From Mobula hypostoma (taxonomy: Eukaryota): 64,000 nt of DNA. How positions within the stretch are numbered: position 1 is the first letter of the stretch; every line of letters starts with the position of its first letter. Positions 6,698 to 64,000 of this stretch are shown here, one piece after another. Made by a program: the position numbers and the translations under genes. Under the pieces are notes generated by a model. The model was not told the DNA's origin. It searched no databases and saw nothing but the letters and a program-made list of their open reading frames with translations. The stretch lies in assembly GCF_963921235.1 (NCBI RefSeq), contig NC_086097.1:107820001-107884000 (forward strand), given 5' to 3'.

Positions 6698-7666
6698 GTG
6701 CAAATCAATATCTTCTTTATAACTTGCTTTCCTACTTAAACTTTGCATCATCAGAAATTTTAGCACCATACCTTCAACTCCGTGTAAGGCATGAAAATGC
6801 CCGACGCAGGTCTCTCATGGTCTGAGTGGACGTTCCCCTCCCTGTCCCCTTCAACGCCCTTCATTCATATGAAGTGTAACAGCACGAGGCAGCTCCAGCA
6901 CAGAATGCTCTAGAATACCACATATTTTGAATAAATCTCTGCTTTATGTTGGACAACCAATCCTCCATTTCCATCACTATATGATCTCCTAAACCATAAG
7001 GGTCTACATTCTGTAATAACCTTTAAGGTGGCACTTTATTAAATGTCTTATGAAAATCCAAGTGTTCAACATGTACCAGTTTCCCTCAACCACAGCACAA
7101 ATTACTTCAATAAATTGATTGGAAACAATTTCCCTTTCAAAAAACCATCTTAATTTTGGCTGATTACTTGGAACTTTTTTCAGTGACACCTTTAACAGTA
7201 ACTTCTCAAATTTTCCAAAAGACAGTTTTAAACTTATCATTCTTCCTTTTGAATGTAGAATTAACATTCACAATCTTCCAATCTGATTAACCTTCCGTAT
7301 CTATGGTAAATTTTAGAAAATTAAAACATCTCGAAAACATGGACGTGAGAAATTCTGCAGATACTGGAAATCCAAAGCAACACACACAAAATGCTAGAGG
7401 AGCTCAGCAAGTCAGGCAGCATCTATGGAAATGAACAGATAGTTGATGTTTCAGCCAAGGACTGGACTGCAAAATCCATTTCTTTTCAAACCGTCGGAAG
7501 AACCCAGAGAACTGTTAGGTACAGTACTACTCCTCAACCGATTTTAGTTTTTCCAAGTTTCATCCTCGCTTCCAATTCCTGATTCATAGCTATTTGTGAA
7601 ATGGTAAATGTATTTTCTATTAAAAAGACCGATGAAAAAGTTAATTCACTTGCTTATTTTCTAATA

Positions 7667-9240
7667 CAAGTTTCCCCCGCCATCCGAAGGTAGAGCGTTC
7701 CTATGAAACGGTTCGTAAGCTGAAATGTCGTAAAGCAAAGAAGCAATTACCATTTATTTATATGGGAAAATTTTGTGAGCATTCGCAGACCCAAAAATAA
7801 CCTACCAAATCATGCCAAATAACACATAAAACCTAAAATAACAGTAACATATAGTAAAAGCAGGAATGATATGATAAATACACAGCCTATATAAAGTAGA
7901 AATATTTTTCCACAATCATTGCCGGCACAGATCTCTGTAGCGAAAATCTCACGCAAGCGCCGTCGGCAGAAAATCTCACACAAGCGCTGTTGGCAAAAAC
8001 ATGGCGCAAGCGCTCTCCAGTAACCTTTAAACTATGACGCTGCCAAATCATACCAAATAACACATAAAAATACACAGCCGATATAAAGTAGAAATAATGT
8101 ATGTACAGTGTAGTATCACTTACCGGAATTGGTTCAGCACCGAGCACACTGATGATGGTGTGTTAGGCTGAGTCGGAGTTTCGGTGGTGCAGTGGCCCCC
8201 ACCCTCCGGGCCACTAACTGATACATTGCCGCGAAGCACGCAGGGGTCCAGCGGTAGCCGGGACGCACCCAGCACATCTTTAAGAAAAAAGCCAAAATAA
8301 ACATGCTAATTAATTACGTGCTGCCCGACACATAATTGTCGGCACAGATCAGTGCCGATTGCCAATTGCATCGCCTCTGATCTGGGCCGACAATTATGTG
8401 TTGGGCGGCACCTAATTAATTAGCATGTTTATTTCAGTTTTTTTCTTAAAGATGTGCTGTGTGCCTCCCGGCTACCGCTGCGTTCTCCGCGAATCGGTAC
8501 AGTATCTGTCTGAGGCCCAGGTGTTGGGGTGGTAGGACACAGGGGTGTCATCTCATCGTCGATCAGGGCAGGCAGCTCATCTTCTCCTATGACTGCCCGC
8601 CTCGATGTCGAAAGTCGAGGTTCGTCATCTGCTGTGGCTGATGTGGAAGGCTTGCTTGACTGCTGAGCCTCGCGCATTTTTCTATCACACAGTTCTTTGT
8701 AAGGACTCAAAGAATCTTGCAAATATCCCCTAAACCTACGTACCCTTTCAAAATTAAAGGCGTATGTTATCATTACTCATTCGGTTTCGGTTGTTATCCT
8801 TTCCTCTTCCAATTGCATCAGCTCTTCATCTATCAGTTCTTGTTCATGGGATGCCAAAACCTCTTCAACATCATCTTTGTCAGCTTCCACAAGCCAAATT
8901 CATTTTGTCCTTGCTTCGTTCACCACGATCAAAACACTTAATTATGTCTAGTTTTACGCCAAGTGTAACACCCTTACGAGCTCTTTCAGGCTTTTCCGAC
9001 ACCATAGAACTCATCTTGCAAACGACTGCTCACAGGTTCGTGTTAAAGCAATGCTGGCGAGAATGCCGTTCCGAATCCGGGGAGAGCGGCTGCTCGGGGC
9101 GCGCGCTGCTTTTTATCACGCGCTGAATTTTTTTCATAACAGTGAAAACACCTTCTGAAAGCGAAAACTGGGTACTAATGTAGGTCTTTCGTAACAGTGA
9201 GGTTTTGTAAAGCGAACATTGGAAAAGCGGGGGACACCTG
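7667..9240 (-). mobile_element. Tigger/pogo-type non-autonomous DNA transposon
   Basis: Imperfect TIRs CAAGTTTCCCCCGC... and ...GCGGGGGACACCTG, TA on both sides; transposase C-terminus-like remnant around ORF 8429..8773; related copy at 28225-28939. Confidence 0.8.
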
Positions 9241-19009: not shown

Positions 19010-19460
19010 CAAGTCAGTCCATGGCCTCCTCTTGAGCCAAGATGAAGCCACCCTCAGGATGGTATTCTGTCTGGGTGGCCTCCAACTTGATGGCAGAAAT
19101 GTCAAATTCTCCTTCCGAAAATGATTTCCCCTCCCAATTGCCTTAATTTATTCCCCACTCTTACCTATTCTCATCTGCCTATGACGTCCCCCTGGGTCCC
19201 CACCATCTTCCCTTTCTCCTATGGTCCACTATTCTCTCCTATCAGATTCCTTCTTCTCCAGCCTTTGACCTTTCCCACCCACCTGGATTCACCTTCAATT
19301 TCCAGCTAGCATCCTTCACCACCCCCACTTTTTTATTCTGGTATCTTCCCCCTTCCTTCTCAGTCCTGAAGAAGGGTCTCAGCCTGAAATGTCGACCATT
19401 TATTTACTTCCATAGATGTTGCCTGACCTGCTGAGTTCCTCCAGCAATTTGTGTGTGCTG
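19010..19460 (+). mobile_element. Penelope-like element 3' fragment with hammerhead motif at 19362-19397
   Basis: Colinear with 24400-25069; AGTCCTGAAGAAGGGTCTCAGCCTGAAATGTCGAC. Confidence 0.8.
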
Positions 19461-20102: not shown

Positions 20103-22387
20103 ATATGCTGGCTCTTCTCAATTAACTCAAACATCTCTATTACCCTCACTTTATTCAGTTCCATTTCAATTACCTTCAATTGAATTTTTTTGTTTTTGAA
20201 GTAGGTCATAGGAACATAGAAAACCTACAGCACAATACAGGCCCTTCAGCCCATGATGCTGTGCCGAACAGGTACTTAATTTAGAAATTACCTTGGGTTA
20301 CCTATAGCCCTCTATTTTTCTAAGCTCCATGTCATAAACTCCTATCCAGGAGTCTCTTAAAAGATCCTACTGTATCCATCTCTACCTCTGTCGCTGGCAG
20401 CCCATTCTACGCACTCACCACTCTCTGTGTAAAAAACCCTGACATCTCCTCTGTATCTACTTCCAAGCACCTTAAAACTGTGCCCTCTCATGTTAGTCCT
20501 GGGAAAAAGCCTTTGTCGATACACATGATCAATGCCTCTCATCATCTTACACACTTCTATCAGGTCACCTCTCATCCTCCATCGCTCCAAGGAGAAAAGG
20601 CCAAGTTCACTCAACCTATTCTCATAAGGCATGCTCCCCAATCCAGGTAACATCCTTGTAAATCTCCTCTGCACACTTTCTATGTTTCCACATCCATCGT
20701 GTCGTGACATGACCAGAACTGAGCACAGTACTCCAAGTGGGGTCTAACCAGGGTCCTATGTAGATGCAACACTACCTCTCAGCTCTTAAATTCAATCCCA
20801 CAATTGATGAAGGCAAATGCACCGTATGCCTTCTTAACCATATAGTCAACCTGTGCTGCAGCTTTGAGTGTCCTGTGGACTTGGACCCCAAGATCCCTCT
20901 AATCCTCCATACTGCCAAGCGTCTTACCATTAATATTATATTCTGCCATCATATTTGACCTACCAAAATGAACCACCTCACACTTATCTGGGTTGAACTC
21001 CATCTGCCACTTCTCAGCCCAGTTTTGCATCCTATCAATGTCTCGCTGTAACCTCTGACAGTCCTCCACACTATACACAACACCTCCAACCTTTGTGTCA
21101 TCAGCAAATTTACTAACCCATCCCTCCACTTCCATCCAGGTCATTTATAAAAATCACGAAGAGTAGGGGTCCCAGAACAGATCCCTGAGGCGCACCACTG
21201 GTGACCGACCTCCATGCAGAATATGACCCGTCTACAACCACTCTTTGCCTTCTGTGTGCAAGCCAGTTCTGGATCAACATAGCAATGTCCCCTTGGATTC
21301 CATGCCTCCTTACTTTCTCAATAAGCCTTGCATGGGGTACCTTGTCAAATGCCTTGCTGAAATCCATATACACTACATCTACTGCTCTTCCTTCATCAAT
21401 GTGATTAGTCACCTCCTCAAAAAACTCAATAAGGCTCGTAAGGCATGACCTGCCTTTAACAAAGCCATGCTGACTATTCCAAAGCATATTATGCCTCTCC
21501 AAATGTTCATAAATTCTGTCTCTCAGGATCTTCTTCATCAACTTACCAACCACTGAAGAAAGACTCACTGATCTATAATTTCCTGGGTTATCTCTACTCC
21601 CTTTCTTGAATAAGGGAACAACATCTGCAACTCTCCAATCCTCTGGAACCTCTCCCGTCCCCATTGATGATGCAAAGATCATAAACCAGAGGCTCAGCAA
21701 TCTCCTCCCTCGCTTGCCACAGTAGCCTGGGGTACATCTCGTCCGGGTCCGGTGACTTATCCAACTTGATGCTTTCCAAAAGCTCCAGCACATCCCCTTC
21801 CTTAATATCTACATGCTCAAGCTTTTCAGTCTGCTGCAAGTCATACCTACAATCGCCAAGATCCTTTTCCATAGTGAATACTGAAGCAAGGTATTCATTA
21901 AGTACCTCTGCCATCTCCTCTGCTTCCATACACACTTTTCCATTGTCACACTTGATTCGTCCTATTCTCTCACGTCTTATGCTCTTGCTCTTCACATACT
22001 TGTAGAATGCCTTGGGATTTTCCTTAATTATGCTCGCCAAGGCCTTCTCCCCCCCGCTTCTGGCTCTTCGAATTTCATTCTTAAGCTCCTTCCTGCCAGC
22101 CTTATAATCTTCTAAATCTCTTTCATTATCCAGTTTTTGAACCTTTCCGAAGCTTTTCTTTTCTTCTTGACGAGATTTTCAACTGCCTTTGTACACCACG
22201 GTTCCTGTATGCTACCATCCTTTACCTGTCTCATGGGAACATACCTACGCAGAACCCCATGCAAATATCCCCTGAACATTTAAAAACGCAAACACGAGGA
22301 ATTCTGCAGATGCTGGAAATTCAAGCAACACACATCAAAGTTGCTGATGAACTCAGCAGGCCAGGCAGCATCTCTAGGAAGAGGTAC

Positions 22388-22423
22388 AATCGACGTTTCA
22401 GGCCGAGACCCTTCATCAGGACT
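22388..22423 (-). ncRNA. Minimal type I hammerhead ribozyme motif in PLE terminus
   Basis: Minus strand AGTC CTGATGA A GGGTCTCGGCCT GAAAC GTC GATT. Confidence 0.7.
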
Positions 22424-23410
22424 AACTGAAGGAAGAGTTAGCAAGAGATTTGAAAGTGGGAGGGGGAGGAGGAGATCCAAAATGATAGGAGAAGACGGGG
22501 GGGGGGTGGGGGATGGAGCCAAGAGCTGGACAGGTGATTGGCAAAGGGGATATGAGAGGATCATGGGACAGGAGGTCCGGGGAGAAAGACAAGCGGGGGG
22601 GTAACCCAGAGGATGGGCAAGGGGTATAGTCAGAGGGACAGAGGGAGAAAAAGGAGAGTGAGAGAAAGAATGTGTGTATATAACTAAATAACAGATGAGA
22701 TACGAGGGGGAGGTGGGGCCTTAGCGGAAGTTAGAGAAGTCGATGTTCATGCCATCAGGCTGGAGGCTACCCAGACGGAATATAAGGTGTTGTTCCTCCA
22801 ACCTGACTGTGGCTTCATCTTTACAGTACAGGAAGCCGTGGATAGACATATCAGAATGGGAATGGGATGTGGAATTAAAATGTGTGGCCACTGGGAGATC
22901 CTGCTTTCTCTGGCGGACAGAGCGTAGGTGTTCAGCAAAACAATCTCCCAGTCTGCGTCGGGTCTCGCCAATATATAGAAAGCCACATCGGGAGCATCGG
23001 ACGCAGTATATGACCCCAGCCGACTCACAGGTGAAGTGTCACCTAATCAGTTCTCCGCAACCACCACTCTGCTCCATCTAGCGGAATTAGTCCTTACTCT
23101 TAATACAAATGCTTGTAATTTCTCCTTTGGCTCCTCCTACTTCCTCCAAACTAAAGGTGTAGCTATGGGCACCCATATAGGTCCTAGCTATGCCTGCCTT
23201 TTTGTTGGCTTTGTGGAATAATCTATGTTCCAAACCGATTCTAGTACCTGTCCCCCACTTTTCCTTCGCTACATCGATGACTGCATTGGCGCTGATTCCT
23301 GCACGCATGCTGAGCTCGTTAACTTCATTAACTTTGCCTCCAACTTTCACCCTGCCCTCAAGTTTACCTGGTCCATTTCCAACACCTCCCTCCCCTTTCT
23401 AGATCTTTCT

Positions 23411-23579
23411 TTTTAAATCTTTTTACTAAGTAAGTATACAAAAAGGTAAGCCATATAGACACTAATACATTGTTAGAATATAATAAAATTACAGAAGATA
23501 TTAATACAAAAAAAAACTACAAACAATGTAATTTAAACATAATATACCAAGGTAACATAATAGTATACTAATTTTATAA
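23411..23579 (-). mobile_element. Short AT-rich retroposed fragment nested in the PLE RT region
   Basis: Flanked by 8 bp direct repeat ATCTTTCT (23403-23410, 23580-23587); PLE frame continues on both sides. Confidence 0.6.
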
Positions 23580-24424
23580 ATCTTTCTGTCTCTATCTCTG
23601 GAGACGGCTTATCTACTGATGTCTACTATAAGCCTACTGACTCTCACAACTATCTGGACTATTCCTCCTCTCACCCTGTCTCTTGCAAAAATGCCATCCC
23701 CTTCTCACAATTCCTCCGTCTCCGCCGCATCTGCTCTCAGGATGAGGCTCTTCATTCCAGGACAAGGGAGATGTCCTCCTTTTTTAAAGAGAGGGGCTTC
23801 CCTTCCTCCACCATCAACTCTGCTCTTAAACGCATCTCCCCCATTTCATGCACATCTGCTCTCACTCCATCCTCCCGCCACGCCACTAGGAATAGGGTTC
23901 CCCTGGTCCTCACTTACCACCCCACCAGGCTCCGGGTCCAACATATTATTCTCCCTAACTTCTGCCACCTCCAACGGGATCCCACCACTAAGCACATCTT
24001 TCCCTCCCCCCGCCCCTGCTTTCTGCAGGGATCGCTCCCTACACGACTCCCTTGTCCATTCGTCCCCCCCATCCCTCCCCACTGATCTCCCTCCTGGCAC
24101 TTATCCTTGTAAGCGGAACAAGTGCTACACATGCCCTTACACTTCCTCCCTTACCACCATTCAGGGCCCCAGACAGTCCTTCCAGGTGAGGCGACACTTC
24201 ATCTGTGAGTCGGCTGGGGTGATATACTGCGTCCGGTGCTCCCGATGTGGCCTTCTATATATTGGCGAGACCCGACGCAGACTGGGAGATCGTTTTGCTG
24301 AACACCTACACTCTGTCCGCCAGAGAAAGCAGGATCTCCCAGTAGCCACACATTTTAATTCCACATCCCATTCCCATTCTGATATGTCTATCCACAGCCT
24401 CCTCTACTGTAAAGATGAAGCCAC

Positions 24425-24592
24425 CTCAGCCAATAGGCTGGTCCTGGACTTATTTCCTGGCATAATTTACATATTACTATTTAACTATTTATGGTTTTAT
24501 TACTATTTAATTACTTATGGTGCAACTGTAACGGAAACCAATTTCCCCCGGGATCAATAAAGTATGACTATGATTATGACTATGACTATGAC
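24425..24592 (+). mobile_element. LINE 3' tail fragment (Rex1/L2-like) nested in the PLE endonuclease
   Basis: AATAAA followed by (ATGACT)n; absent from the homologous PLE copies at ~22820 and ~50565. Confidence 0.65.
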
Positions 24593-24971
24593 TACACTCA
24601 AGTTGGAGGAACAACACCTTATATTCTGTCTGGGTAGCCTCTAACCTGCTGGCATGAACGTTGACTTCTTTAACTTCCGCTAATGACCCACCTCCCCCTC
24701 ATAACCCATCCGTTATTTATTTATATACACACACATTCTTTCTCTCTCTCTCTCCTTTTTCTCCCTCTGACTATACCCCTTGCCCATCCTCTGGGATTTT
24801 CCCCCTCCCCCTCTTCCTTCTCCCTGGGCCTCCTGTTCCATGATCCTCTCATATCCCTTTTGCCAATCACCTGTCCAGCTCCTGGCTCCATCCCTCCCCC
24901 TCCTGTCTTCTCCTATCATTTTGGATCTCCCCCTCCCCCTTTCAAATCTCTTACTAGCTTTTCCTTCAGTT

Positions 24972-25007
24972 AGTCCTGATGAAGGGTCTCCGCCCGAAAC
25001 GTCGACT
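24972..25007 (+). ncRNA. Minimal type I hammerhead ribozyme motif in PLE terminus
   Basis: AGTC CTGATGA A GGGTCTCCGCCC GAAAC GTC GACT. Confidence 0.75.
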
Positions 25008-26325
25008 GTACCTCTTCCTGGAGATGCTGCCTGGCCTGCTGCGTTCATCAGCAACTTTGATGTGTGTCTCCTGAACATTTGCCATATTTCTTCCATATGT
25101 TTCCCTGAGAACATCTGTTTCCAACTTATGCTTCCAAGTTCCTGCCTGATCACCTCAGATTTCCTCTTACTCCAATTAAATGTTTCCCTAACTTGTTTGT
25201 TCCTATCCCTCTCCAATGCAATGGTAAAGGAGATAGAAGTGGGATCAGTATCTCCAAAGTGCACTCCCACTGAGAGATCTGACACCTGACCAGGTTCATT
25301 TCCCAATACCAGATCAAGTACTGCTTCTCTTCTTGTAGACTTATCTACATATTGTGTCAAGAAACCTTCCTGACCACACCTAACAAACTCCACCCCATCT
25401 AAACCCCCCACTCTGAGGAAATGTCAATCAATATTTGGGAAATTAAAATCTCCCACCACAACAACCCTGTTATTATTATTCTTTTCCAGAATCTGTCTCC
25501 CTATCTGCTCTTTGATGTCCCTGTTACTATTGGGTGGTCTATAGAAAACACCCAGGAAAGTTATTGGCCCTTTCATGTTCGTAACCTCCACCCACAGAGA
25601 CTCCGTAGACAACCTCTCCATGACCTCCTCTTTTTCTACAGCCGTGACGCTATCTCTGATCAACAGTGCCACACCCCCACCTCTTTTGCCTCCCTCCCTG
25701 TCCTTTCTGAAACATCTAAAGCCTGGCACTTGAAGTAGCCATTTAAGTCTCTGTAACGGCTACAACATCATAGCTCCAAGTGCTGATCCACACTCTAAGC
25801 TCATCCACTTTATTCATAACACTCCTCACATTAAAATAGACACATCTCAAACCATCGGTCCGAATGCGTCCCTTCTCTATCATCTGCCTATCCTCCCTCT
25901 TACACTCTCTCCAAGTTTTCTCTATTTGTGAGCCAACCTCCCCTTCCTCTGTCACTTCAGTCCTGTTCCCACCCCCCAGCAATTCTAGTTTAAACTCTCC
26001 CCAATATCCTTAGCAAACCTCGCTGCCAGGATATTGATCCCCCTGGGATTCAAGTGCAACCCGTCCTTTTTGTACAGGTCATATCTGCCCCAAGAAGAGG
26101 TCCCAATGATCCAGAAATCTGAATCCCTGACCCCTGCTCCAATCCCTCAGCCACGCATTTATCCCCCACCTCATTCTATTCCCATACTCACTGTCATGTA
26201 GCACAGGCAGTATTCCCAACATTATTACCTTTGAGGTCCTGCTTCTCAACTTCCTTCCCAACTCCCTGTAGTCTGCTTTCAGGACCTCCTCCCTTTTCCT
26301 GCCTATTTATTGGTACCAATATGTA

Positions 26326-27043
26326 GACTATAAGACCATAAGACAAAGGAGCAGAAGTAGGCCACTCGGCCCATGGAGTCTGCTCTGCCATTTTATCATG
26401 AGCTGATCCATTCTTCTATTTAGTCCCACTCCCCCGCCTTCTCACCATAACCTTTGATGCCCTGGCTATTCAGATACCTATCAATCTCTGCCTTAAATAC
26501 ACCCAATGACTTGGCCTCCACTGCTGCCCGTGGCAACAAATTCCATAGATTCACCACCCTCTGACTAAAAAAATTTCTTCGCATTTCTGTTCTGAATGGG
26601 CGCCCTTCAATCCTTAAGTCATGCCCTCTCGTACTAGACTCCCCCATCATGGGAAACAACTTTGCCACTTCCACTCTGTCCATGCCTTTCAACATTCAAA
26701 ATGTTTCTATGAGGTCTCCCCTCATTCTTCTAAACTCCAAATACAGTCCAAGAGCAGACAAACGTCCCTCATATGTTAACCCTCTCATTCCCGGAATCAT
26801 TCTAGTGAATGTTCTCTGTACCCTCTCCAACGTCAGCACATCCTTTCTTAAATAAGGAGACCAAAACTGCCCACAGTACTCCAAGTGAGGTCTCACCAGC
26901 GCCTTATAGAGCCTCAACATCCCATCCCCGCTCCTATGCTCTATTCCTCTAGAAATGAATGCCAACATTGCATTCGCCTTCTTCACTACTGACTCAACCT
27001 AGAGATTAACCTTAAGGGTATCCTGTACAAGGACTTCCAAGTC
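26326..27043 (-). mobile_element. CR1 subfamily A 3' fragment
   Basis: ORFs 26696..26986 and 26420..26695; TAAGACCA-type tail at the left end. Confidence 0.93.
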
Positions 27044-28197
27044 CATAAGACCATAAGACAAAGGAGCAGAAGTAGGTCATTCTGCCCATGGAGTCTGCTC
27101 CGCCATTTTATCATGAGCTGATCCATTCTCCTATTTAGTCCCACTCCCCCGCCTTCTCACCATAACCTTTGATGCCCTGGCTATTCAGATACCTATCAAT
27201 CTCTGCCTTAAATACACCCAATGACTTGGCCTCCACTGCTGCCCGTGGCAACAAATTCCATAGATTCACCACCCTCTGTCTAAAAAAATGTCTTCGCATT
27301 TCTGTTCTGAATGGGCGCCCTTCAATCCTTAAGTCATGCCCTCTCGTACTAGACTCCCCCATCATGGGAAACAACTTTGCCACTTCCACTCTGTCCATGC
27401 CTTTCAACGTTCAAAATGTTTCTATGAGGTCCCCTCTCATTCTTCTAAACTCCAAGGAATACAGTCCAAGAGCGGACAAACATTCCTCATATGTTAACCC
27501 TCTCATTCCCGGAATCATTCTCGTGAATCTTCTCTGTACCCTCTCCAACATCAGCACATCCTTTCTTAAATAAGGAGACCAAAACTGCCCACAGTACTCC
27601 AAGTGAGGTCTCACCAGCGCCTTATAGAGCCTCAACATCACAACCCTGCTCCTATACTCTATTCCTCTAGAAATGAATGCCAACATTGCATTTGCCTTCT
27701 TCACTACTGACTCAACCTGGAGATTAACTTTAAGCGTATCCTGTACGAAGACTCCCAAGTCCCATTGCATCTCAGAACGCTGAATTCTTTCCCCATTTAA
27801 ATAATAGTCTGCCCGTTTATTTTTTCTGCCAAAGTCCATAACCATACACTTTCCAACATTGAAGTATCATTTGCCACTTCTCTGCCCATTCTTCCAATCT
27901 ATCCAAGTCTCTCCGCAGACTCTCTGTTTCCTCAGCACTACCCGCCCCTCCACCTATCTTCGTATCATCAGCAAACTTAGCCACAAAGCCACCTATTCCA
28001 TAATCCAAATCGTTGATGTACAATGTAAAAAGAAGCGGCCCCAACACTGACCCCTGTGGAACACCACTGGTAACCGGCAGAATAGGATCCCTTTATTCCC
28101 ACTCTCTGTTTCCTGCCAATCAACCAACACTCTATCCACGTATGTAACTTTCCCGTAATTCCATGGGCTCTTATCTTGTTAAGTAGCCTCATGTGTA
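27044..28197 (-). mobile_element. CR1 subfamily A RT to 3' end, tandem with the previous copy
   Basis: ORFs 27977..28201, 27817..28047, 27411..27845, 27135..27407. Confidence 0.93.
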
Positions 28198-28224
28198 CCA
28201 CAACCTCAAGCTGTTCTTCTGCCT

Positions 28225-28939
28225 AGCACGTAATTGTCGGCCCAGATCAGAGGCAATGCAATCGGCAATCGTCTCTGATCTGCGCCAACATTTACGTGCC
28301 GGGCAGCACCTAATTAATTAGCATGTTTATTTCGGCTTTTTTCTTAAAGATGTGCTGTGTGCCTCCCGGCTACTGCTGCATTCTTCGCGGCAATGTATCG
28401 GGTCGGTGGCCCGGAGGGTGGGGGCCACTTCACCACCCAGCCTGCAACAACTCAGTCTAACACACCATCATCAGTGTGCTCGATGCTGTTTTCCCAATTC
28501 CGGTGTAAGTGATACTACACTGTACATACATTACTTCTATTTTATATAGGCTGTGTTATTTGGTAGATTTGGCAGCTTCATAGTTTAAACGTTACTGGAG
28601 AGCGCGTTCATGCCAACAGCGCTTGCGTGACTTTTTCTGCCGAGAGCACTCGAGTGAGATTTTCTCTACGGAGATCAGTGCAGGCAATCGTTGTAGAGAA
28701 GTATTTCTACTTTATATAGGCTGTGTATTTATCATATCATTCCTGCTTTTACTATACACTACTGTTATTTTAGGTTTTATGTGTTTTTTGGCATGATTTG
28801 GTAGGTTATTTTTGGGTCTGCGAACGCTCACAAAATTTTCCCATATAAATAAATGGTAATTGCTTTTTCGCTTTACAACATTCCGGCTTACGAACCGTTT
28901 CACAGGAAAGCTCTACCTTCGGATGGCGGGGGAAACCTG
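28225..28939 (+). mobile_element. Truncated Tigger-type element, same family as 7667-9240, opposite orientation
   Basis: Ends ...GGATGGCGGGGGAAACCTG followed by TA; reverse complement of ~7667-8400. Confidence 0.8.
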
Positions 28940-29001
28940 TACTTAGCTTATTACCACCCATTTTTAATGTAGTAACTACAACCCTTTTTCTATAACCTTA
29001 C

Positions 29002-29714: not shown

Positions 29715-29976
29715 CAAACAACAGGAATTCTGCAGATGCTGGAAATTCAAGCAACACACATCAAAGTTGCTGGTGAATGCAGCAGGCCAGGCAGCATCTC
29801 TAGGAAGAGGTACAGTCGACGTTTCAGGCCAAGACCCTTCGTCAGGACTAACTCTTCTCTTACTAACTCTTCCTTCAGTTAGTCCTGACGAAGGGTCTCG
29901 GCCTGAAACGTCGACTGTACCTCTTCCTAGAGATGCTGCCTGACCTGCTGCGTTCACCAGCAACTTTGATGTGTGT
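29715..29976. mobile_element. Palindromic mini-PLE insertion (two inverted terminal repeats, hammerheads at 29814-29849 minus and 29881-29916 plus)
   Basis: Arms are near-perfect reverse complements; flanked by TGCTTTTATCTCAGTTG at 29698-29714 and 29977-29993. Confidence 0.88.
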
Positions 29977-42491: not shown

Positions 42492-42853
42492 CTATCGTGC
42501 TTATCCACACAAATCCCAATTCCTGCATTAATTCTGTACTCCCTATGCTGATTATCGTGCCTATCCACACAAATCCCAATTCCTGCATTAATTCCGTATT
42601 CCCCTATGCTGATTATCGTGCCTATCCACACAAATCCTAATTCCTGCATTAATTCCGTATTCCCCTATGCTGATTATCGTGCCTATCCACACAAATCCCA
42701 ATTCCTGCATTAATTCCGTACTCCCCTTTGCTGATTATCGTGCCTATCCACACAAATCCCAATACCTGCATTAATTCCGTATTCCCCTATGCTGATTATC
42801 GTGCCTAACCACACAAATCCCAATACCTGCATTAATTCCGTATTCCCCTATGC
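42492..42853. repeat. Minisatellite, about 6 copies of a 60-61 bp unit
   Basis: Unit TATCGTGCCTATCCACACAAATCCCAATTCCTGCATTAATTCCGTATTCCCCTATGCTGAT, at the 3' UTR end of an old CR1 (42860-43440). Confidence 0.95.
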
Positions 42854-46699: not shown

Positions 46700-47225
46700 A
46701 TTTTAATTCCGATTCCCACTTCTGTTCCAACCTATCAGTCCGTGGCCTCCTCTTGTGCCAAGAAGAGGCCACCCTTAGTGTGGAGGAGCAACACCTTATA
46801 TTCCATCTGGGTAGCCTCCAAACTGAATACATGAATATCAATTTCTTCTTCCAGAAAAAAATTCCCTCCTCCTCCCCCTTCTCTTATTCGGCACTCTAGC
46901 CTTTTACCTTTACTCACCTGCCTATTACTTCCCCGGAGATTCCCTCTTCCTTCCCTTTCTCTTATTGTCCATCCTCCTCTCATATCAGATTCCTTCTTCT
47001 CCAGCCCTTCACTTTTCCCACCCATTTGGCTTCACCTATCTCCTTCTAGCCTCCTCTCCCTCCACCCACTATTTTATTCTGGCGTCTTTCCCCTTGCATT
47101 TCAGTCTTGAAGAAGGATCTTGGCCCAAAACTTAGACTTAATTCATTGCCTGAGCTGCTGAGTTCCTCCAGCATTTTAAGTGCGTTGCTTTGGATTTCTC
47201 ATATCTGCAGGCTTTCTCGTGTTAG
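46700..47225 (+). mobile_element. Penelope-like 3' fragment with degenerate hammerhead
   Basis: EEQHLIFHLGSLQ-coding stretch and terminal repeat colinear with 24600-25069. Confidence 0.8.
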
Positions 47226-47719: not shown

Positions 47720-48210
47720 AAGCGCTACATGTTTGGACTGTGGGAGGAAACCAGAGCACCCAGAGGAAACCCATGTGGTCATGGGGAGAATGTACAAACT
47801 CCTGCAAACAGCAGCAGGAAATACCTGCATTGCTGGTACTGTAAAGCGTTGTGCTAATCACATTGCTGGTACTGTAAAGCGTCGTGCTAATCACATTGCT
47901 GGTACTGTAAAGCGTCGTGCTAATCACATTGCTGGTACTGTAAAGCGTCGTGCTAATCACATTGCTGGTACTGTAAAGCGTCGTGCTAATCACATTGCTG
48001 GTACTGTAAAGCGTCGTGCTAATCACATTGCTGGTACTGTAAAGCGTCGTGCTAATCACATTGCTGGTACTGTAAAGCGTCGTGCTAATCACATTGCTGG
48101 TACTGTAAAGCGTCGTGCTAATCACATTGCTGGTACTGTAAAGCGTTGTGCTAATCACATTGCTGGTACTGTAAAGCGTCGTGCTAATCACTACACTACC
48201 ATGCCGCCCC
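47720..48210 (-). mobile_element. tRNA-derived SINE with expanded head region
   Basis: Minus strand GGGCGGCATGGTAGTGTAGTGATTAGCAC head and typical body. Confidence 0.7.
47828..48191. repeat. Tandem repeat, 11 x 33 bp, near-perfect
   Basis: Unit CATTGCTGGTACTGTAAAGCGTCGTGCTAATCA; no spacers. Confidence 0.98.
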
Positions 48211-50116: not shown

Positions 50117-51016
50117 GCCACATAATTCTCCGCAACTTCCGCCATCTCCAATGGGATCCCACCACCAAGCACACCTTTCCCTCTCCCTCACTTTCTGCTT
50201 TCAGCAGGGATCACTCCCGACACAACTCCCTTGTCTATTCCTCCCTCCCCAATGATCTCCCTCTTGGCACAAGTGCCATACCTGTCCCTACACCTCCTCC
50301 CTCAATACCATTCAGGGCCCCTAACAGTCCTACCAGATGAGGTGGTCATTCAGCTGTGAGTCAGTTGGGGTCGTATACTGTGTCTGGTGTTCCCAGTGTG
50401 GCCTCCTGCATATCGGTGAGACCCGACCTAGACTGGGAGACCGCTTTGCCGAGCACCTATGCTCCATTCACCAGAAAAAGTGGAATCTCCCAGTGGCCAC
50501 CCATTTTAATTCCACTTCCCATTCTGTTATGTCCATTCATGGCTTACTCCACTGTCGTGATGAGGCCACACTCAGGTTGGAGAAACAACACCTTATATTT
50601 CATCTGGGTAGCCTCCATCCTGATGAAATTAACATCCATTTCTCGAACTTCTATTAATTCCCCCCCTTCACCATTCCCCATCCCCTTTTCCCTCTCTCAC
50701 CTTATTCCCTTGCCCGCCCATTGCCTCTCTCTGGTGCTCCTCCCCTCTTTTCTTTCTTCCATGGCCTTCTGTCCTCTTCTATCAGACCGGCCCTTCTCCA
50801 GCCCTGTATCTGCATTTCACCAGTCACCTTCTGTTTCTTTCTCCCCCCATCATTTAAATCCCCTCCTCAGCTTTTTTTTTGCAGTCCTGCTGAAGAATCT
50901 CAGCCCAAAAGGTCGACTGTACTCTTTTCCATAGATGCTGCCTGGCCTGCTGAGTTCCTCCAACATTTGGTGTATATTGTTTGATTTCCAGCATCTGCAG
51001 ATTTTCTCTTGTTTGT
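50117..51016 (+). mobile_element. Penelope-like element fragment (GIY-YIG plus terminal repeat)
   Basis: ORF 50337..50657 GVVYCVWCSQCGLLHIGETRPRLGDRFAEH; degenerate hammerhead at ~50883-50918. Confidence 0.9.
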
Positions 51017-54384: not shown

Positions 54385-54967
54385 GCAAACACGAGGAAAT
54401 CTGCAGATGCTGGAAATCCAAGCAACACACACAAAAAATGCTGGTGAACGCAACAGGCCAGGCAGCATCTACAGAAAGAGGTACAGTCGACGTTTCCGGC
54501 CGAGACCCTTCGTCAGGACCAACTGAAAGAAGAGATAGTAAGAGATTTGGAAGTGGGAGGGGGAGGGGAGATCCGAAATGATAGGAGAAGACAGGAGGGG
54601 GAAGGATGGAGCTAAGAGCTGGAATGTTGATTAGCAAAAGGGATACGAGGCTGGAGAAGGGAGAGGATCATGGGACGGGAGGCATAAGGAGAAAGAAAGG
54701 GGGAGGGGAGCCCACTATAGTGAGAGGGACAGAGGGAGAAAAGAGAGAGAGAGAGAAAAAAGGGGGGGGGTAAATAAATAAATATGGGATGGGGTACAAA
54801 GGGGAGGTGAGGCATTAACAGAAGTTCATGCCATCAAGTTGGAGGCTACCCAGACGGAATATAAGGTGTTGTTCCTCCAACCTGAGTGTGGCTTCATCTT
54901 TACAGTAGAGGAGGCCGTGGATAGACATATCAGAATGGGAATGGGATGTGGAATTAAAATGTGTGGC
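54385..54967 (-). mobile_element. Penelope-like 3' fragment with hammerhead motif at 54485-54520
   Basis: Closely similar to 22286-22890; minus strand GGTC CTGACGA A GGGTCTCGGCCG GAAAC GTC GACT. Confidence 0.88.
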
Positions 54968-55712: not shown

Positions 55713-56889
55713 TTGGCTTAGTCTGTGCTCCAAAAAATACACAGAGAAGTTGGCCTCTGTTTATCTGAATCTGTGCCATTCAACTAAACTGTCCTGTCCT
55801 GTGTTGAAGGAACTACTGGACTATCTTCATTTCAACCTGCTTATCTTTCCCATTGCAGTCCAGTGGAGTGCTTTGTTTCAGGCAGACCAAGAGTGTGCCA
55901 GCTGAGAGGGGTTTCTGCGAGACAAACAGAAAAGAGCATCTTGCTCACTAATCAGTACTTACTTCTGAATATTGATGGGGAAGGGATTTCCAGATAGAAG
56001 TACAGCCAGAGCCAAGCCAAAGTGGGGATCAAACTGAGTGGACTCAGAAATTCTGGAGGGGTGAGCAGACAAAGGCTATTGTCAATAACAATGTGAACAC
56101 CAAACACAGAAAACAAGATGAAGTCCTGTCTGCAGATTGATAGAGAGTTAGCTAAGAAGCAGGACCTCAAAGATAGTAATCTCCAGATGATTCCCAGTGT
56201 CAGGTGCCAGTGACCCCAGAGAGCAGAGGATGCATGGCTGGAGAAGGGATACAGGATTAGATTTTTGTGGCATTAGACCCGTTTTGAGGAAGACAGAACA
56301 TGTACAGCCAAAATGGATTGTATTCAACAAGGCCAGGAAGAGGCAGCTTGCTGGTACTGCCTGGGAGAGTTGAAAGTAACTTGGCAGGGGTTGAAAAGCT
56401 GAGCAAGGTTCAGTAAGTAAAAGCAGAACTAGAAATAAAAAGTAGAAAATTAATGAGAGGATGGAATGCAGAGATTAGAAGGTAGACAACAATGGACCGC
56501 TCCCTGCTCTGAATGGTCTACCCCTAAATGCAAGGAATATGAAAAGTGGTATAAAGTATTGGTTGATATGTGGAGTATATGATAGATATTATGGAAATGT
56601 GGTTTAAGAAGGAACAGAAATGAGTTATGAGAAAAGATCATCAAAAGAAGCTGAATGGATTATACTGAAGGGCAAAATAGGATCAAATTAACAGTGTACT
56701 ATCAACCTCCAAAAAGTAAGGCAGAGGCAAAAAGTTAACTTTCAGGCAAATTTTGGACCAAGGCACAAGTATCAAGGCAGTAATTCTGGGAGATTTTACT
56801 TACCAGAATATTAACTGAGATACAGTCAGTGTAGAAATGTATAGTGGGCCCAGAATTCATAAATTGAATTCAGAATAACACGTGGAACC

Positions 56890-58594
56890 AGTATAAAGAG
56901 AGGATTCTGGTTAACTGAGCCATCAGTTAAATGGGGCTTCTGCTTGTTTGGGACAAATCTTAAAGAACAAAAACTAGTCAAGAAAATAGCTGGGATTCTC
57001 TTTGTTTATTTCAGACACTCTGCCACTTAACTGGAGCAAGAGATTGTTGCCGAACAGTTTCTAACTAGCGTTAGTCACATGCACTTGCATGGCTATTAGA
57101 TGCTATACTGTGCTGAGTGTGAACAGTTTGTATACAGCATCAGTTGCATGTGTTTTTGTTCAAAAAGCAGCGATTTTTGTCACTGATAGTTATCAAGAAA
57201 TAAGCAGTAAGACAATTCAGAACTGTTTTGATCACTGAAGTTTCAAGCATTCAGCCTTGGAGATGACAGAAACTGCAAGGAATATGAAAAGCGGTATAAA
57301 GTATTGGTTGATATGTGGAGTATATGATAGATATTATGGAAATGTGGTTTAAGAAGGAACAGAAATGAGTTATGAGAAAAGATCATCAAAAGAAACCGAA
57401 TGGATTATACTGAAGGGCAAAATAGGATCAAATTAGCAGTGTACTATCAACCTCCAAAAAGTAAGGCAGAGGCAAAAAGCTAACTTTCAGGCAAATTCAG
57501 GCTGAGAATTTAATGAAACGATTTCACTACTTCAACAAGTTAGAGACATTGAAGAATTTGAAGATATCAACAATCACCTTGTATGTTACAATGAAAATGA
57601 AGATTTGGAGAATGCAATCATCAACAGCATTGTATGAAGGAAGTCCACTGTCTACACTAAGTGTGCTGATTTTGTTCATTTACAGTCAAAAGAACACGGT
57701 AAGGACAAATTCCTCCATCCATAAGTATTAGGAACTAATACACAAGTTTTATAATACTCCAGTAGTATTGGAAGTGTTCTAATTTGTTCTATATTTCATT
57801 TAAATACATAGTTTATTACAGTTTGTAATTTTTATACCATTTTGGAGGAAAAGACAGCGGCGCGACACAGCTTGCACGGCCACTCCGGTGAATGATATCT
57901 ATAATCTGTCAAGTAGGGTGCCGTGCACAATTCTGATTTGATGGAGATAGACGTGAGAGGACAGAGGAACATCTGGAGAAACCTCTGAAATGCCTTTTTC
58001 GCTGCTGTTGTTACCGTGTGATCCAGAATCTCCGGAGGGGAAGGCCCCGAATCCTTGGCTTTGCTTGTTGCATGGTGGCCGGGACAGGGTCGAAGCGCTC
58101 GGCAGAAATGGTGCTCGGTGTTGAAGGGCTAGTCGGAGGCTCGAAGTTTTCGGACGGATTCAGGGTCGGCTGTGGTCAGGTACTTCCAATGCATCGACAG
58201 TTGTCAGTGCCTGGAGGTTTATGGCAGAGAGAGTTTCTGCCTTCTGCCGCCTGCCATCGGGGACTATCGGGAGTCAATCAGAACTTTGAGAATTTTTTTA
58301 CCGTTCCCATGGTCTGCTCTTTATCAAATTACGGCATTGCTTTGCACTGCTGTAACTATATGTTATAATTATGTGGTCTTGTCAGTGTTAGTCTTTGGTT
58401 TGTCGTGTGATATCACTCTGGAGGAACATTGCATCATTTCTTAATGCATGTATGCATTTCTAAATGACAATAAACGAGGACTGAGTGTCCTCATAATCTA
58501 ACCTAATCTAATTTCATGAACTCTGGCTAATTGCGACAGCCACTTAATTGTGCCAAGATGTGCTGGTCCCAGTGTGGTCAATTAAAACCAGAAT
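56890..58594 (+). mobile_element. Tigger-type element (family of 19650-20102) with two internal insertions
   Basis: GGATTCTGGTTAA near the left end and AAACCAGAATC near the right end; inserts at 57274-57497 and ~57845-58512 (the latter ends AATAAA then (CTAAT)n). Confidence 0.6.
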
Positions 58595-60180: not shown

Positions 60181-60774
60181 AAAGCCTGGATGGAATTATA
60201 CAGAATAGTCACAGAATTAAAAGGGGAAGCAGAACAGCAGAGAGAGCACATGAGAAAATAAGGTTCAGCAAAACCACTGAAAACCCAAATATGTTTAGTA
60301 AATACAAGAGCAAGAGAATAACAAAACTATGAACTAGTACATATTTGGTACCAAGAATATAAATTAATGTGGTTAGGACTTTTAATAATTATTTTGCAGC
60401 CACTTTATCAAAAGCAGGGGAAAAAAGCTGATGTTGAAGTGGACCTTTGCAAAGTATTAGCTGAGATATCATACTAAAGGAGCATCCCATATTTCAGCAT
60501 CTTTTAAACTGGATAAGGAAGTTTTGGACTGCGGGATGCAAATCGTATGGTCAGTTGGCAGAAAAGCAGTAAGTATGATTTAATGCAGAGAAAACGTGAG
60601 GCAATTCATTTGGAGAAGTGCAGGAAGGGAAGAGAATATGAAATAAATGGGAAGACACTAAGAAAACTGGAGGAACAGAGGGACCGCTTTTACTGACTTT
60701 AATACAACCACAGACCATTTAAGGGAGTAGTACAGGTAGAAAAGATAGTAAAAAAAATATATAAAATACTTTCT

Positions 60775-61958
60775 CTTTACCCTTTCCAATGCTTCCACAT
60801 CCTTCCGATAGTGAGGTGACTAGAACTGGACACAGTACTCCAAGTGTGGCCTAACCAGAGTTTTACAGAGCTGCATCATTACCCCTCGACCCTTAAACTC
60901 TGTCCCTCGACTTATGAAAGTTAACACTCCATAAGCTTTCTTAACTACCCTATCCACCTGTGAGGCAACTTTCAGGGATCTGTGGACACGTACCTCCAGA
61001 TCCCTCTGCTCCTCCACACTACCAAGTATCCTGCCATTTACTTTGTACTCTGCCTTGGAGTTGGTCCTTCCAAAGTGTACCACCTCACACTTCTCCGGGT
61101 TGAACTCCATCTGCCACTTCTCAGCCCACTTCTGCAACCAATCAAAGTCTCTCTGCAATCTTCGACAATCCTCTACACTATCTACAACACCACCAACCTT
61201 GGTGTCGTCTGCAAACTTGCCAACCCACCCTTCTATCCCCACATCCAGGTCGTTAATAAAAATCACAAAAAGTAGAGGTCCCAGAACCAATCCTTGAGGG
61301 ACACCACTAGTCACAACCCTTCAATCTGAATGTACTCCCTCCACCACGACCCTCTGCTTTCTGCAGGCAAGCCAATTCTGAATCCACCTGGCCAATCTTC
61401 CCTGGATCCCAAGCCTTCTGACTTTCTGAATAAGCCTACCGTGTGGAACCTTGTCAAATGCCTTACTAAAATCCATGTAGATCACATCCACTGCACTACC
61501 CTCATCTATATGCCTGGTCACCTCCTCAAAGTACTCTATCAGAGTATGCATTATGATCAGAGATTAGGGGAGCTAGGGCTTTACTCTTTGGAGAGAAGGA
61601 GGATGAGAGGAGACATGATAGAGGTATACATGATATTAAGAGGAATAGATAGAGTGGATAGCCAGCGCTTCTTCCCCAGGGCACCACTGCTCAATACCAG
61701 AGGACATGGCTTTAAGGTAAGGGGTGGCAAGTTCAAGGGGGATATTAGAGGATGGTTTTTTACTCAGAGAGTGGTTGGTGCGTGGAATGCACTGCCTGAG
61801 TCAGTGGTGGAGGCAAATACACTAGTGAAATTTAAGAGACTACTCGACAGGTATATGGAGGAAATTAAGGTGGGGGGTTATATGAGAGGCAGGGTTTAAG
61901 GATTAGCATCATATTGTGGGCCGAAGGGCCTGTACTGTGCTGAACTGTTCTATGTTCT
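60775..61958 (+). mobile_element. CR1 subfamily C insertion with inverted 5' segment (60775-~61541 minus, ~61541-61958 plus)
   Basis: Both parts closely match 4284-5510; ORFs 60820..61314 (minus) and 61330..61899 (plus, CR1 from SMHYDQRL). Confidence 0.92.
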
Positions 61959-62205
61959 ATACTTCCCTTTATCAACCAAGACAAAGAATACAAGATGCAG
62001 CCTTGCCTGCTGAGTTCCTCCAGCATTTTGTGTGTTGCTCAAGATCAGAGAGGTTATGTATACAACACTGGTTAGATCATAGCTTGAATATTGTGTAAAG
62101 TACATCAGAGGAAAGATGTAATTGAACAAAAGATGACGCAGATATTTACAAAGGTGTTGCTAGTATGGAAATATAGTAGCCATGAAGTGAGGTCAGAAAG
62201 CTCAA

Positions 62206-62463
62206 ACACGAGGAATTCTGCAGATGCTGGAAATTCAAGCAACACACATCAAAGTTGCTGGTGAACGCAGCAGGCCAGGCAGCATCTCTAGGAAGAGGTA
62301 CAGTCGACATTTTGGGCCGAGACCCTTCGTCAGGACTAACTGAAAGAAGAGTGAGTAAGAGATCTCTTACTAACTCTTCCTTCAGTTAGTCCTGACGAAG
62401 GGTCTCGGCCCGAAACGTCGACTGTACCTCTTCTTAGAGATGCTGCCTGGCCTGCTGCGTTCA
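62206..62463. mobile_element. Palindromic mini-PLE insertion (hammerheads at 62302-62337 minus and 62388-62423 plus)
   Basis: Loopless centre GTAAGAGATCTCTTAC; TSD TCAGAAAGCTCAA at 62193-62205 and 62464-62476. Confidence 0.88.
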
Positions 62464-62639
62464 TCAGAAAGCTCAAGTTGTTTTCCTTTGAAAGGGAAGG
62501 CAGACAAAAGACTAAAGTGTGATACATAAAGGCATGTTTGGCAGGAGTATGGTAACCAGAAAGTGGAGGGATGGAGAGGAAGGTAGATGTCATAGCCAGT
62601 AAAAACAGGCAGGAACAAAATATTAGATATAATAGGACA

Positions 62640-64000
62640 GATAGTTTGAAATGTGTATATTTTAATGCTAGGTGTAAAATGGATAAAGGTGATGATCTTA
62701 GAACATGGATCAGTACATGGAACTATGATGTGTAGCCATTCCAGAGACTTGTTTGAGAGGGGAACACAAAGAGGTGCTTAATGCCCCAGGGTTTCGATGT
62801 TTCAGTAAAGATAAAGGGAGAAATGGGGGGGGGGGGGAGAGAGTTACACTACCAATTTGGGACAATATCATAGCTGCACTCCCTGGGGAAATAATGGAGG
62901 GCTCATCACTGAGTCTATATGGGTAAAAATAGGAAGGGTGCAATCACTCTGATGGGACTGTAATACTGACCCCATGAGTCGCCAGGACATTTAGGAACAG
63001 ACATGCAGGTAGATTAAGGAAAGGTGTAAAATCAATAGGGTTGTTGTCATGGGGGACTTCAACTTTCCTAATAGAAACTGGGACCTTCTTAGTACAAGAG
63101 GTTTAGATTGAGCAGAATTGGTTAGGTGCATCCAGGAGGGTTACTTAAATCAATATGTGGATAGTCTAACAGGAGGAGGGGCTGGGTAATGAGCCTGGCC
63201 AGGTGATTGGGTGAGTAGTTAGGGAATAGTCAGCAAAGCTCCTTAAGCATTAGGATAGCTATAGATGAGGATAAGTATGGACCTGGCAGGAGAGTTTTTA
63301 AATTGGAGCAGGGCAAATTATGAGAGCATCAGGTGCGAACTAGGAGAGTTATTTGGAAACAAGTATTTTTGTGCAAGTCCACATCTGCCATGTGTTGGAT
63401 GTTTAAAGACCAACTGCACAGAGTACAGGACAGGTACATTCCAGTCAGAAGGAAGGACAAGGATGGCAAGGTCAGAGAACCTTGGATGTTGAGAGAGGTG
63501 AAGAATTTAGTTAATTTAATTAAGTTTAGGAAGCTAGAATCAAACAAAGCCCTTGAGCATTATCAAGATTGCCAGAAAAGAACTCAAGAAGGGAATTAGG
63601 AAAGCCAAAAAGGGCCATGAAAGGTCCTTGGCGGGTAAGATTAAAGGGAATCCCAGGGTGTTCTATACATACATCAAGAGCAAGAGGATAACTGTGGAGA
63701 GGATATGACCACTCAACGATTAAAGGGGGAACTCAGTGCAGAGGGTATGGGTTAATAAGACGTGACCTGCCCAAACAAACCCATGCTAGCTCATCAGTAT
63801 TTCCCAAAGAGGAGAACATGAAATATGGGGAGATCAATGCTGGGTGTAATGATATGTCAGGGCATTTTGAAGTAAAGGAGGAGATAGTGTTGGATCTCTT
63901 AGAGAGCATTAAGTTGGATAAGACCCCAGGGCCTGATGGGATATACCCCCGGTTATTGAGAGAGACAAGTGAAGAGATTCTTGGGGCTTAACCTATATCT
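62640..64000 (+). mobile_element. Old CR1 ORF2 5' half (endonuclease and linker), runs off the window
   Basis: LKCVYFNAR at ~62646, GDFNFP at ~63052, DKTPGPDGIYPRLLRE near the end. Confidence 0.88.

Follow-up and report, generated by a model that had tools for sequence, protein, structure and literature searches.

A probable dead, extremely 5′-truncated Penelope-like element of known layout within an old CR1 LINE of Mobula hypostoma

Introduction

Endonuclease-bearing Penelope-like elements (PLEs) leave insertions of a recognizable build. An inverted end combined with a target site duplication (TSD) and a one-sided tail, palindromes at the inverted junctions, and minimal hammerhead motifs on opposite strands are all already published (PMC3846280, PMC8557442, PMC4209133, PMC11167929). 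Pairs of hammerhead motifs on opposite strands have been reported about 100–700 bp apart (PMC4209133). In Drosophila Penelope, whose promoter and intron are treated in PMC2377424, the intron ends at the base of hammerhead helix I (PMC4209133). The biochemistry is represented by the Poseidon protein of Anolis carolinensis, which in vitro cuts and extends both target strands. Its reverse transcription has two internal start sites, one on either side of the tail, and uncut RNA is the main substrate (PMC11167929).

Here we describe a 258-nt insert found in a 64,000-nt stretch of the genome of Mobula hypostoma, the whole of which was analysed and is called the window below. We assign a probability of about 0.95 to the reading that the insert is a dead, extremely 5′-truncated PLE with the known layout.

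Structure of the insert

The insert occupies positions 62206–62463 and consists of two head-to-head copies of one element end with a spacer of 0 nt, which is how the first-pass annotation of this DNA, made from the sequence alone, had described it. The long arm (62206–62362, minus strand, 157 nt) is an inverted Penelope-like end (pLTR) whose sense direction lies on the minus strand, and it is 93.8% identical over 160 nt to positions 22289–22448 of the same window. The short arm (62363–62463, plus strand, 101 nt) is a sense copy of the same end and stops about 20–25 nt inside the usual inner start. Within the 101 shared positions the arms differ at five (62291/62434, 62309/62416, 62313/62412, 62345/62380 and 62353/62372), bearing out the several differences noted at first pass, and the perfect centre claimed there takes the form of an 18-nt palindromic core at 62354–62371. 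Each arm follows the family sequence 1 base past the axis, giving a 2-nt AT overlap at 62362–62363.

What remains unpaired is a one-sided tail on the minus strand (62203–62261, 55–59 nt), a concept that we take from PMC3846280, PMC8557442 and PMC11167929. The tail is one-sided in all three two-armed insertions considered here, with 55–59 nt in the present insert, 34 nt in sister insertion B and 39 nt in sister insertion A. The outer ends had been described as a left arm reaching the element end and a right arm stopping short with a few bases of overlap into the TSD, and both descriptions need some adjustment: the left arm does reach the usual end, with a 3-nt overlap with the TSD, but copy A runs about 7 nt further, while the right arm does stop short but has its 4-nt overlap only against the variant seen in copy A. 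The insert itself holds no open reading frame; it codes for nothing and most likely does nothing.

A loopless palindrome is the kind of structure that an assembly or library artefact, a fold-back chimera, could mimic, and among the contigs listed from four public runs over 61980–62760 none bridges the centre or crosses a filled junction, which is what such an artefact would predict. Against this, two of the five arm differences are CpG-type decay, the inversion ends at the TSD and does not run into the flank, and the empty site of organism D (see below) skips exactly the insert and one repeat. We regard an artefact as extremely improbable; at the palindrome centre itself it is excluded only indirectly, by the decay of the arms, the end of the inversion at the TSD and the two sister insertions that share the build.

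Insertion site

The left copy of the TSD lies at 62193–62205 (plus strand), with its last 3 nt (62203–62205) also matching the element end, and the right copy at 62464–62476 (plus strand), with its first 4 nt matching a family variant of the element. The copies are identical at 13 of 13 positions, and this 13-mer occurs only at these two sites when both strands of the window are searched; the chance of such a repeat is about 8e-6 with 400 boundary placements allowed for. On both sides lies a decayed CR1 LINE in plus orientation. Its left flank (62044–62192) belongs to the 3′ part of ORF2 and its right flank (62477–62586) is assigned by CR1 alignment, by register and by a contig of organism D. 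The host flank aligns to CR1 copies elsewhere in the window. To the left the host CR1 is adjoined by an older Penelope-like end fragment at 61993–62043, inside which the organism D contig starts.

The register of the host element was examined with anchors on either side of the insertion point. These are 58 nt apart with one TSD copy retained, 71 nt with two and 45 nt with none, and the same anchors are 59 nt apart in all five measurable CR1 relatives (seven were tried in the window, of which two lacked an anchor). Scored by local alignment, one repeat copy was favoured in four of six comparisons, and blastn returned a single 43-nt match that was identical for all three variants.

An empty site is provided by run X10 (organism D), where contig 9, with a length of 294 nt and a depth of 8.2, covers 62011–62191 and continues at 62463–62586. 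This one contig of one run skips 271 nt, that is, 258 + 13. The 13-nt duplication is therefore real, because the CR1 register is restored with one copy and the empty site agrees. The first-pass claim of a 13-bp TSD splitting an older CR1 stands on these results, and so does its reading as a single integration of a non-coding Penelope-family end, given the family match, the true TSD and the empty site. An empty allele carrying both copies of the flank had been named as a possible objection; the organism D contig lacks the insert together with one repeat. Divergence between the arms (5/101) equals that between the flanks and organism D (15/294; Fisher p = 1.0), as expected for an insertion after the split from organism D.

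Among the public runs listed, 20 of 23 match some part of the stretch and none matches half of it; no matching run in the list is recorded as RNA. Contigs of four runs (X1, X2, X10 and X15) were aligned to 61980–62760; contigs are a form of data that cannot show starts, strands or splicing. In runs X1, X2 and X15 no listed piece crosses either filled junction or the empty site, a gap that is no proof in either direction.

The Penelope-like family in the window

The arms are 90–95% identical to the ends of copies A, B and C, and the window holds six other young arms of the family along with several older ones. Sister insertion A (22289–25069, plus strand) is a 5′-truncated PLE with remnants of reverse transcriptase (RT) and GIY-YIG domains; it has an inverted left arm of 755 nt, a tail and an 11-nt TSD (22271/25070). 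By tblastn it aligns in order to the RT and C-terminal GIY-YIG parts of proteins of 804–896 aa, and the queries covering the span from RT to GIY-YIG were P0022 (E 3e-72), P0028, P0067 and P0102. Relatives of this length carry RVT_1, HTH_animal and GIY-YIG domains. The GIY-YIG part of sister A itself gives a Pfam E-value of 2.6e-4 with a score of 21.6, below the curated cut-off of 22.6, and it matches the Atlas clusters for GIY-YIG and HTH_animal. A Pfam search at 1e-3 left 10 of the 11 longer frames without a match, the sole match being a CR1 RT. The nearest named proteins are ray gene models (81–90% identical), and the domain order together with the hammerhead would fit the Penelope/Poseidon clade. 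Sister A is interrupted by an AT-rich stretch at about 23420–23572 and again by some 170 nt at 24425–24593 with short tandem repeats at its end.

Sister insertion B (29715–29976), like the present insert, is a mini-palindrome without an ORF; its TSD measures 17 nt (29698/29977). At its centre 21 nt of the left arm are absent and a short templated stretch is present, adjoining an internal inverted repeat of 7 bp that lies immediately upstream of the hammerhead. A head-to-head inverted, 5′-truncated copy is thus common to the present insert, A and B, and all three two-armed family insertions in the window combine a long, tail-bearing arm, a short arm and a TSD (13 nt here, 11 nt in A and 17 nt in B); in each, only one arm extends to the usual outer end. 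Elsewhere in the window a single 582-nt arm of a slightly older subfamily lies at 54386–54967, where no TSD of at least 7 nt was found.

The family of this end is very abundant. As many as 109,429 contigs of run X1 align to the 781-nt stretch, in which the older-subfamily fragment is also contained; the figure is not a copy number. Exact-pattern scans for the family found 0 loci in metagenome_contigs and 0 in viral_contigs. With respect to an open reading frame starting within the arm, none of 120 relatives' proteins matched the arms. In run X15, whose material is guessed to be RNA, a contig of depth 1673 over 62294–62336 changes strand inside the left arm; this contig could be an expressed head-to-head copy elsewhere.

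Rearranged repeats of other kinds are also present in the window. A young CR1 at 60773–61958 is inverted internally at 61542/61543 by comparison with the copy at 4290–5506, to which its two parts are 95% and 93% identical with about 31 nt missing at the turn; it resembles a twin-priming product, with no TSD of at least 7 nt found. An unrelated repeat at 7661–8491 contains a 233-nt internal palindrome (8249–8480, 88%), of which a relative at 28219–28946 carries only part. A CR1 tandem duplication of about 715 nt (96% identical) occupies 26330–27876, and tandem arrays of 61-nt and 66-nt units together with a 227-nt direct duplication occur at 42493–42853, 47828–48191 and 56526–57497.

Hammerhead motifs

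Each arm carries a minimal type I hammerhead motif. That of the right arm (62387–62424, plus strand) has an intact core by pattern match, comprising a stem I of 5 bp, CUGANGA, an extra A, G10.1–C11.1 and GAAA, with a palindromic ACGU replacing helix III and a predicted cut after 62419. That of the left arm (62301–62338, minus strand) is broken, having undergone the changes G12 to A at 62313 and C15.2 to U at 62309, both of CpG type. The G12 residue of the hammerhead is catalytic. The right-arm motif shows the conserved core and the features of helices I and II, and the left arm departs from them at G12. The motif occurs in all seven young-family arms of the window, six of them with an intact core, and was located by pattern, an Rfam search at gathering score having given 0 matches in the 64 kb.

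One hammerhead motif per strand, as the annotation had it, is accurate for the motifs; it does not extend to two working ribozymes, as the left one lacks G12, the two are on opposite strands and the stem II pairing probability falls to 0.0 in a read-through RNA. The two motifs being on opposite strands, no dimer is possible within one transcript. Read-through RNA of the insert is predicted to fold into one 101-bp hairpin of −203 kcal/mol, in which stem II pairs with a probability of 0.0 compared with 0.07 in the right arm alone; by this folding model, the hairpin in any read-through RNA would bury the ribozyme. Many such hairpin stubs could supply double-stranded RNA.

Since the sequence in both arms continues for 57 nt upstream of the predicted ribozyme cut, the template was uncut at that site. 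A cDNA stop at the ribozyme cut was considered and ruled out, the arms running 57 nt beyond it. At the 5′ foot of helix I a pyrimidine tract followed by CAG is present in nine of ten motifs examined, across subfamilies. Such sites, at 19340–19370, 47080–47105 and 50860–50890 and in the young arms, resemble a 3′ splice site.

Possible routes of formation

The route that we hold with slightly better than even confidence is priming on both target strands followed by joining of the ends, in one event in which the RT/GIY-YIG protein of the element would act in trans. Nicks staggered by 13 nt in the old CR1 would come first; the duplication is observed, and this enzyme would be the one to make them. 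The 3′ ends of the target would then each prime cDNA on the end region of the element, as suggested by PMC11167929, the top strand at the usual outer start through a 3-nt match and the bottom strand further in through a 4-nt match. Such unequal starts would leave a tail on one side only, which is the layout observed. Both cDNAs stopped 57 nt upstream of the predicted ribozyme cut, on a template uncut at that point, as the content of the arms shows, and their 3′ ends would have been joined through the 2-nt AT overlap and the gaps filled, yielding a loopless head-to-head palindrome. Neutral decay of about 2.5% per arm would have followed, breaking the left hammerhead.

Since Poseidon cuts and extends both target strands, this layout is obtainable without fold-back. 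In our reading of its sequence, the centre of sister B is made up of an annealing over 7 nt, a templated stretch of 4 nt and a re-annealing over 2 nt, which would be as expected for the joining of two ends. Some observations run counter to priming on both strands. The tail of 55–59 nt exceeds the 30–40 nt given in PMC3846280 and PMC8557442 as well as the 34 and 39 nt of B and A, and matches of 3–4 nt occur at both junctions, whereas initiation in PMC11167929 proceeds without homology to the cut DNA. Furthermore, cDNAs made independently of each other would not be expected to share their last base without a fixed stop.

This last point is where fold-back or a switch of the RT becomes attractive. 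Here the top-strand cDNA would turn at the centre, copy 101 nt and land through the 4-nt match, and the equal inner ends of both arms are explained more cheaply; the short arm is the one expected to be the copy, and palindromes at inverted junctions are interpreted as self-priming in PMC3846280. The first-pass annotation had singled out this mechanism, and the sequence does not sustain that choice. The cDNA end at the centre has no predicted snap-back hairpin, its last 6–14 nt being unpaired, and a loopless turn needs a 2-nt loop. Relative to copy B the arms have no private variant in common, and they are no more alike than separate copies, differing from each other at 5/101 positions compared with 3/101 between the right arm and copy B. 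The 4 nt of the landing match correspond to a family variant missing from the long arm, and in sisters A and B the inner ends of the arms are unequal. On this balance we consider fold-back possible but doubtful.

Two further explanations were weighed. In the first, the open reading frame of a full-length canonical insertion would have been lost by recombination between direct repeats, in the manner of a solo LTR. Removing the ORF from the canonical series of inverted pLTR, pLTR, ORF and pLTR leaves exactly this layout, and PMC3846280 describes the inverted pLTR adjoining the direct pLTR inside the TSD and ascribes solo pLTRs to recombination. We nevertheless find such a loss very unlikely: the homology tract is only about 100 nt long, no chimeric pattern is readable from five differences, and ORF-less head-to-head stubs make up two of the three two-armed insertions in the window, which would be made more easily directly. 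The second envisages a non-autonomous palindromic family copied as a unit, with sister B a copy that later lost 21 nt at its centre. The sense arm of sister B starts at the same base and lies 3/101 from the right arm of the present insert, as this would predict. The outer ends of the short arms differ, however (equivalents of 62262 and 62237), a hairpin RNA would by the folding model hide the hammerhead and presumably a protein-binding site, and the loose ends at 62362/62363 mostly continue as ordinary pLTR (174 and 87 contigs of run X1, agreement 0.63–0.65). Copying as a unit has, in our estimate, an equally slight chance of being correct.

If priming on both target strands is retained, the shared inner end calls for comment. 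Among the seven young arms in the window, three have inner ends that coincide to within 2 nt, namely both arms of the present insert and the sense arm of sister B; these represent two events and the coincidence was noticed post hoc. The base lies 24–27 nt before the pyrimidine tract with its CAG, and in copies A and C an initiator-like motif stands 1–3 nt upstream of it, a weak signal with about an 8% chance of occurring within a 7-nt window. We tentatively raise the idea, which we think unlikely, that a fixed stop lies at the centre, in the simplest case because the element's RNA has its 5′ end there, and that the insert is two joined 'strong-stop' cDNAs. In that case priming from both target strands would have used whichever copy of the RT start site lies closest to the RNA 5′ end. 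A stall of the cDNA at a putative splice branch point 24 nt before the CAG was also considered. A second preferred stop at 62388–62389, suggested by three listed joints from the left arm, was ruled out because older subfamilies first match the reference there and the intervening letters are mostly unknown. Among the papers listed in a literature search that left aside most subscription papers, including the 2005–2006 reviews cited for these structures, none deals with a fixed inner stop in palindromic stubs that lack an ORF.

As a single locus, a decayed stub in an old LINE, the insert is of small importance. It is usable as a presence/absence marker between related rays, and it offers a clean example of the step of Penelope integration that is understood least, with an empty site, a true TSD and spacerless cDNA ends. 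If the shared stop base were found to recur across the genome, it would identify the 5′ end of the RNA and allow the origin of the inverted copy to be tested. Were the fixed stop correct, junction positions and arm variants across many copies would map the start site, and this step of the Penelope cycle could be assigned in vivo either to priming on two strands or to self-priming.

Comparison with known systems

The nearest relatives in layout are the insertions of endonuclease-bearing PLEs (Arkhipova et al. 2013, PMC3846280; Craig et al. 2021, PMC8557442), which share the head-to-head inverted, 5′-truncated copy, a TSD of about 10 nt, a one-sided tail, a palindrome at the inverted junction and arms of 100–200 nt. 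Unlike those insertions, the present insert lacks an ORF, a second direct pLTR and a spacer, and its tail measures 55–59 nt compared with 30–40 nt. The resemblance to Poseidon of Anolis carolinensis (Frangieh et al. 2024, PMC11167929) includes RT starts that flank the tail, a hammerhead left uncut in the template and arm ends about 70–185 nt downstream of the hammerhead core. It departs from the Poseidon described there in its junction matches of 3–4 nt, and the present locus showed no open frame with its start in the hammerhead. The hammerheads themselves are like the minimal ones of metazoan PLEs (Cervera and De la Pena 2014, PMC4209133), being type I without helix III and having the extra base after A9, G10.1–C11.1 and a palindromic 15.2–16.2. 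In contrast to those hammerheads, helix II is shorter here (3 bp with a 6-nt loop, by our own reading) and one motif is broken.

Non-LTR retrozymes (Cervera and de la Pena 2020, PMC7229834; Li et al. 2026, 10.64898/2026.07.22.740005) are likewise non-coding, PLE-related and hammerhead-bearing. They form tandem arrays arranged head to tail with at least two motifs on one strand, whereas the copies described here are head to head with one motif per strand. Tandem head-to-tail copies with at least two same-strand motifs, which define a non-LTR retrozyme, are thus absent from the insert. Nor does it have the terminal inverted repeats from both element ends that characterize a MITE or fold-back DNA transposon, because its arms are unequal, 55–59 nt are unpaired and the ends belong to an RT element.

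In the twin-priming inversions of L1, an inverted and a direct segment lie inside a TSD and both target strands prime, the two segments coming from different parts of one RNA. In the present insert, unlike in L1, both arms cover the same part of the element, and thus two templates, a repeated template or a self-copy is needed. Taken with these systems, the layout is the published standard for endonuclease-bearing PLEs and not a new kind of mini-element; what new information the locus holds may lie only in the exact point at which its two halves meet.
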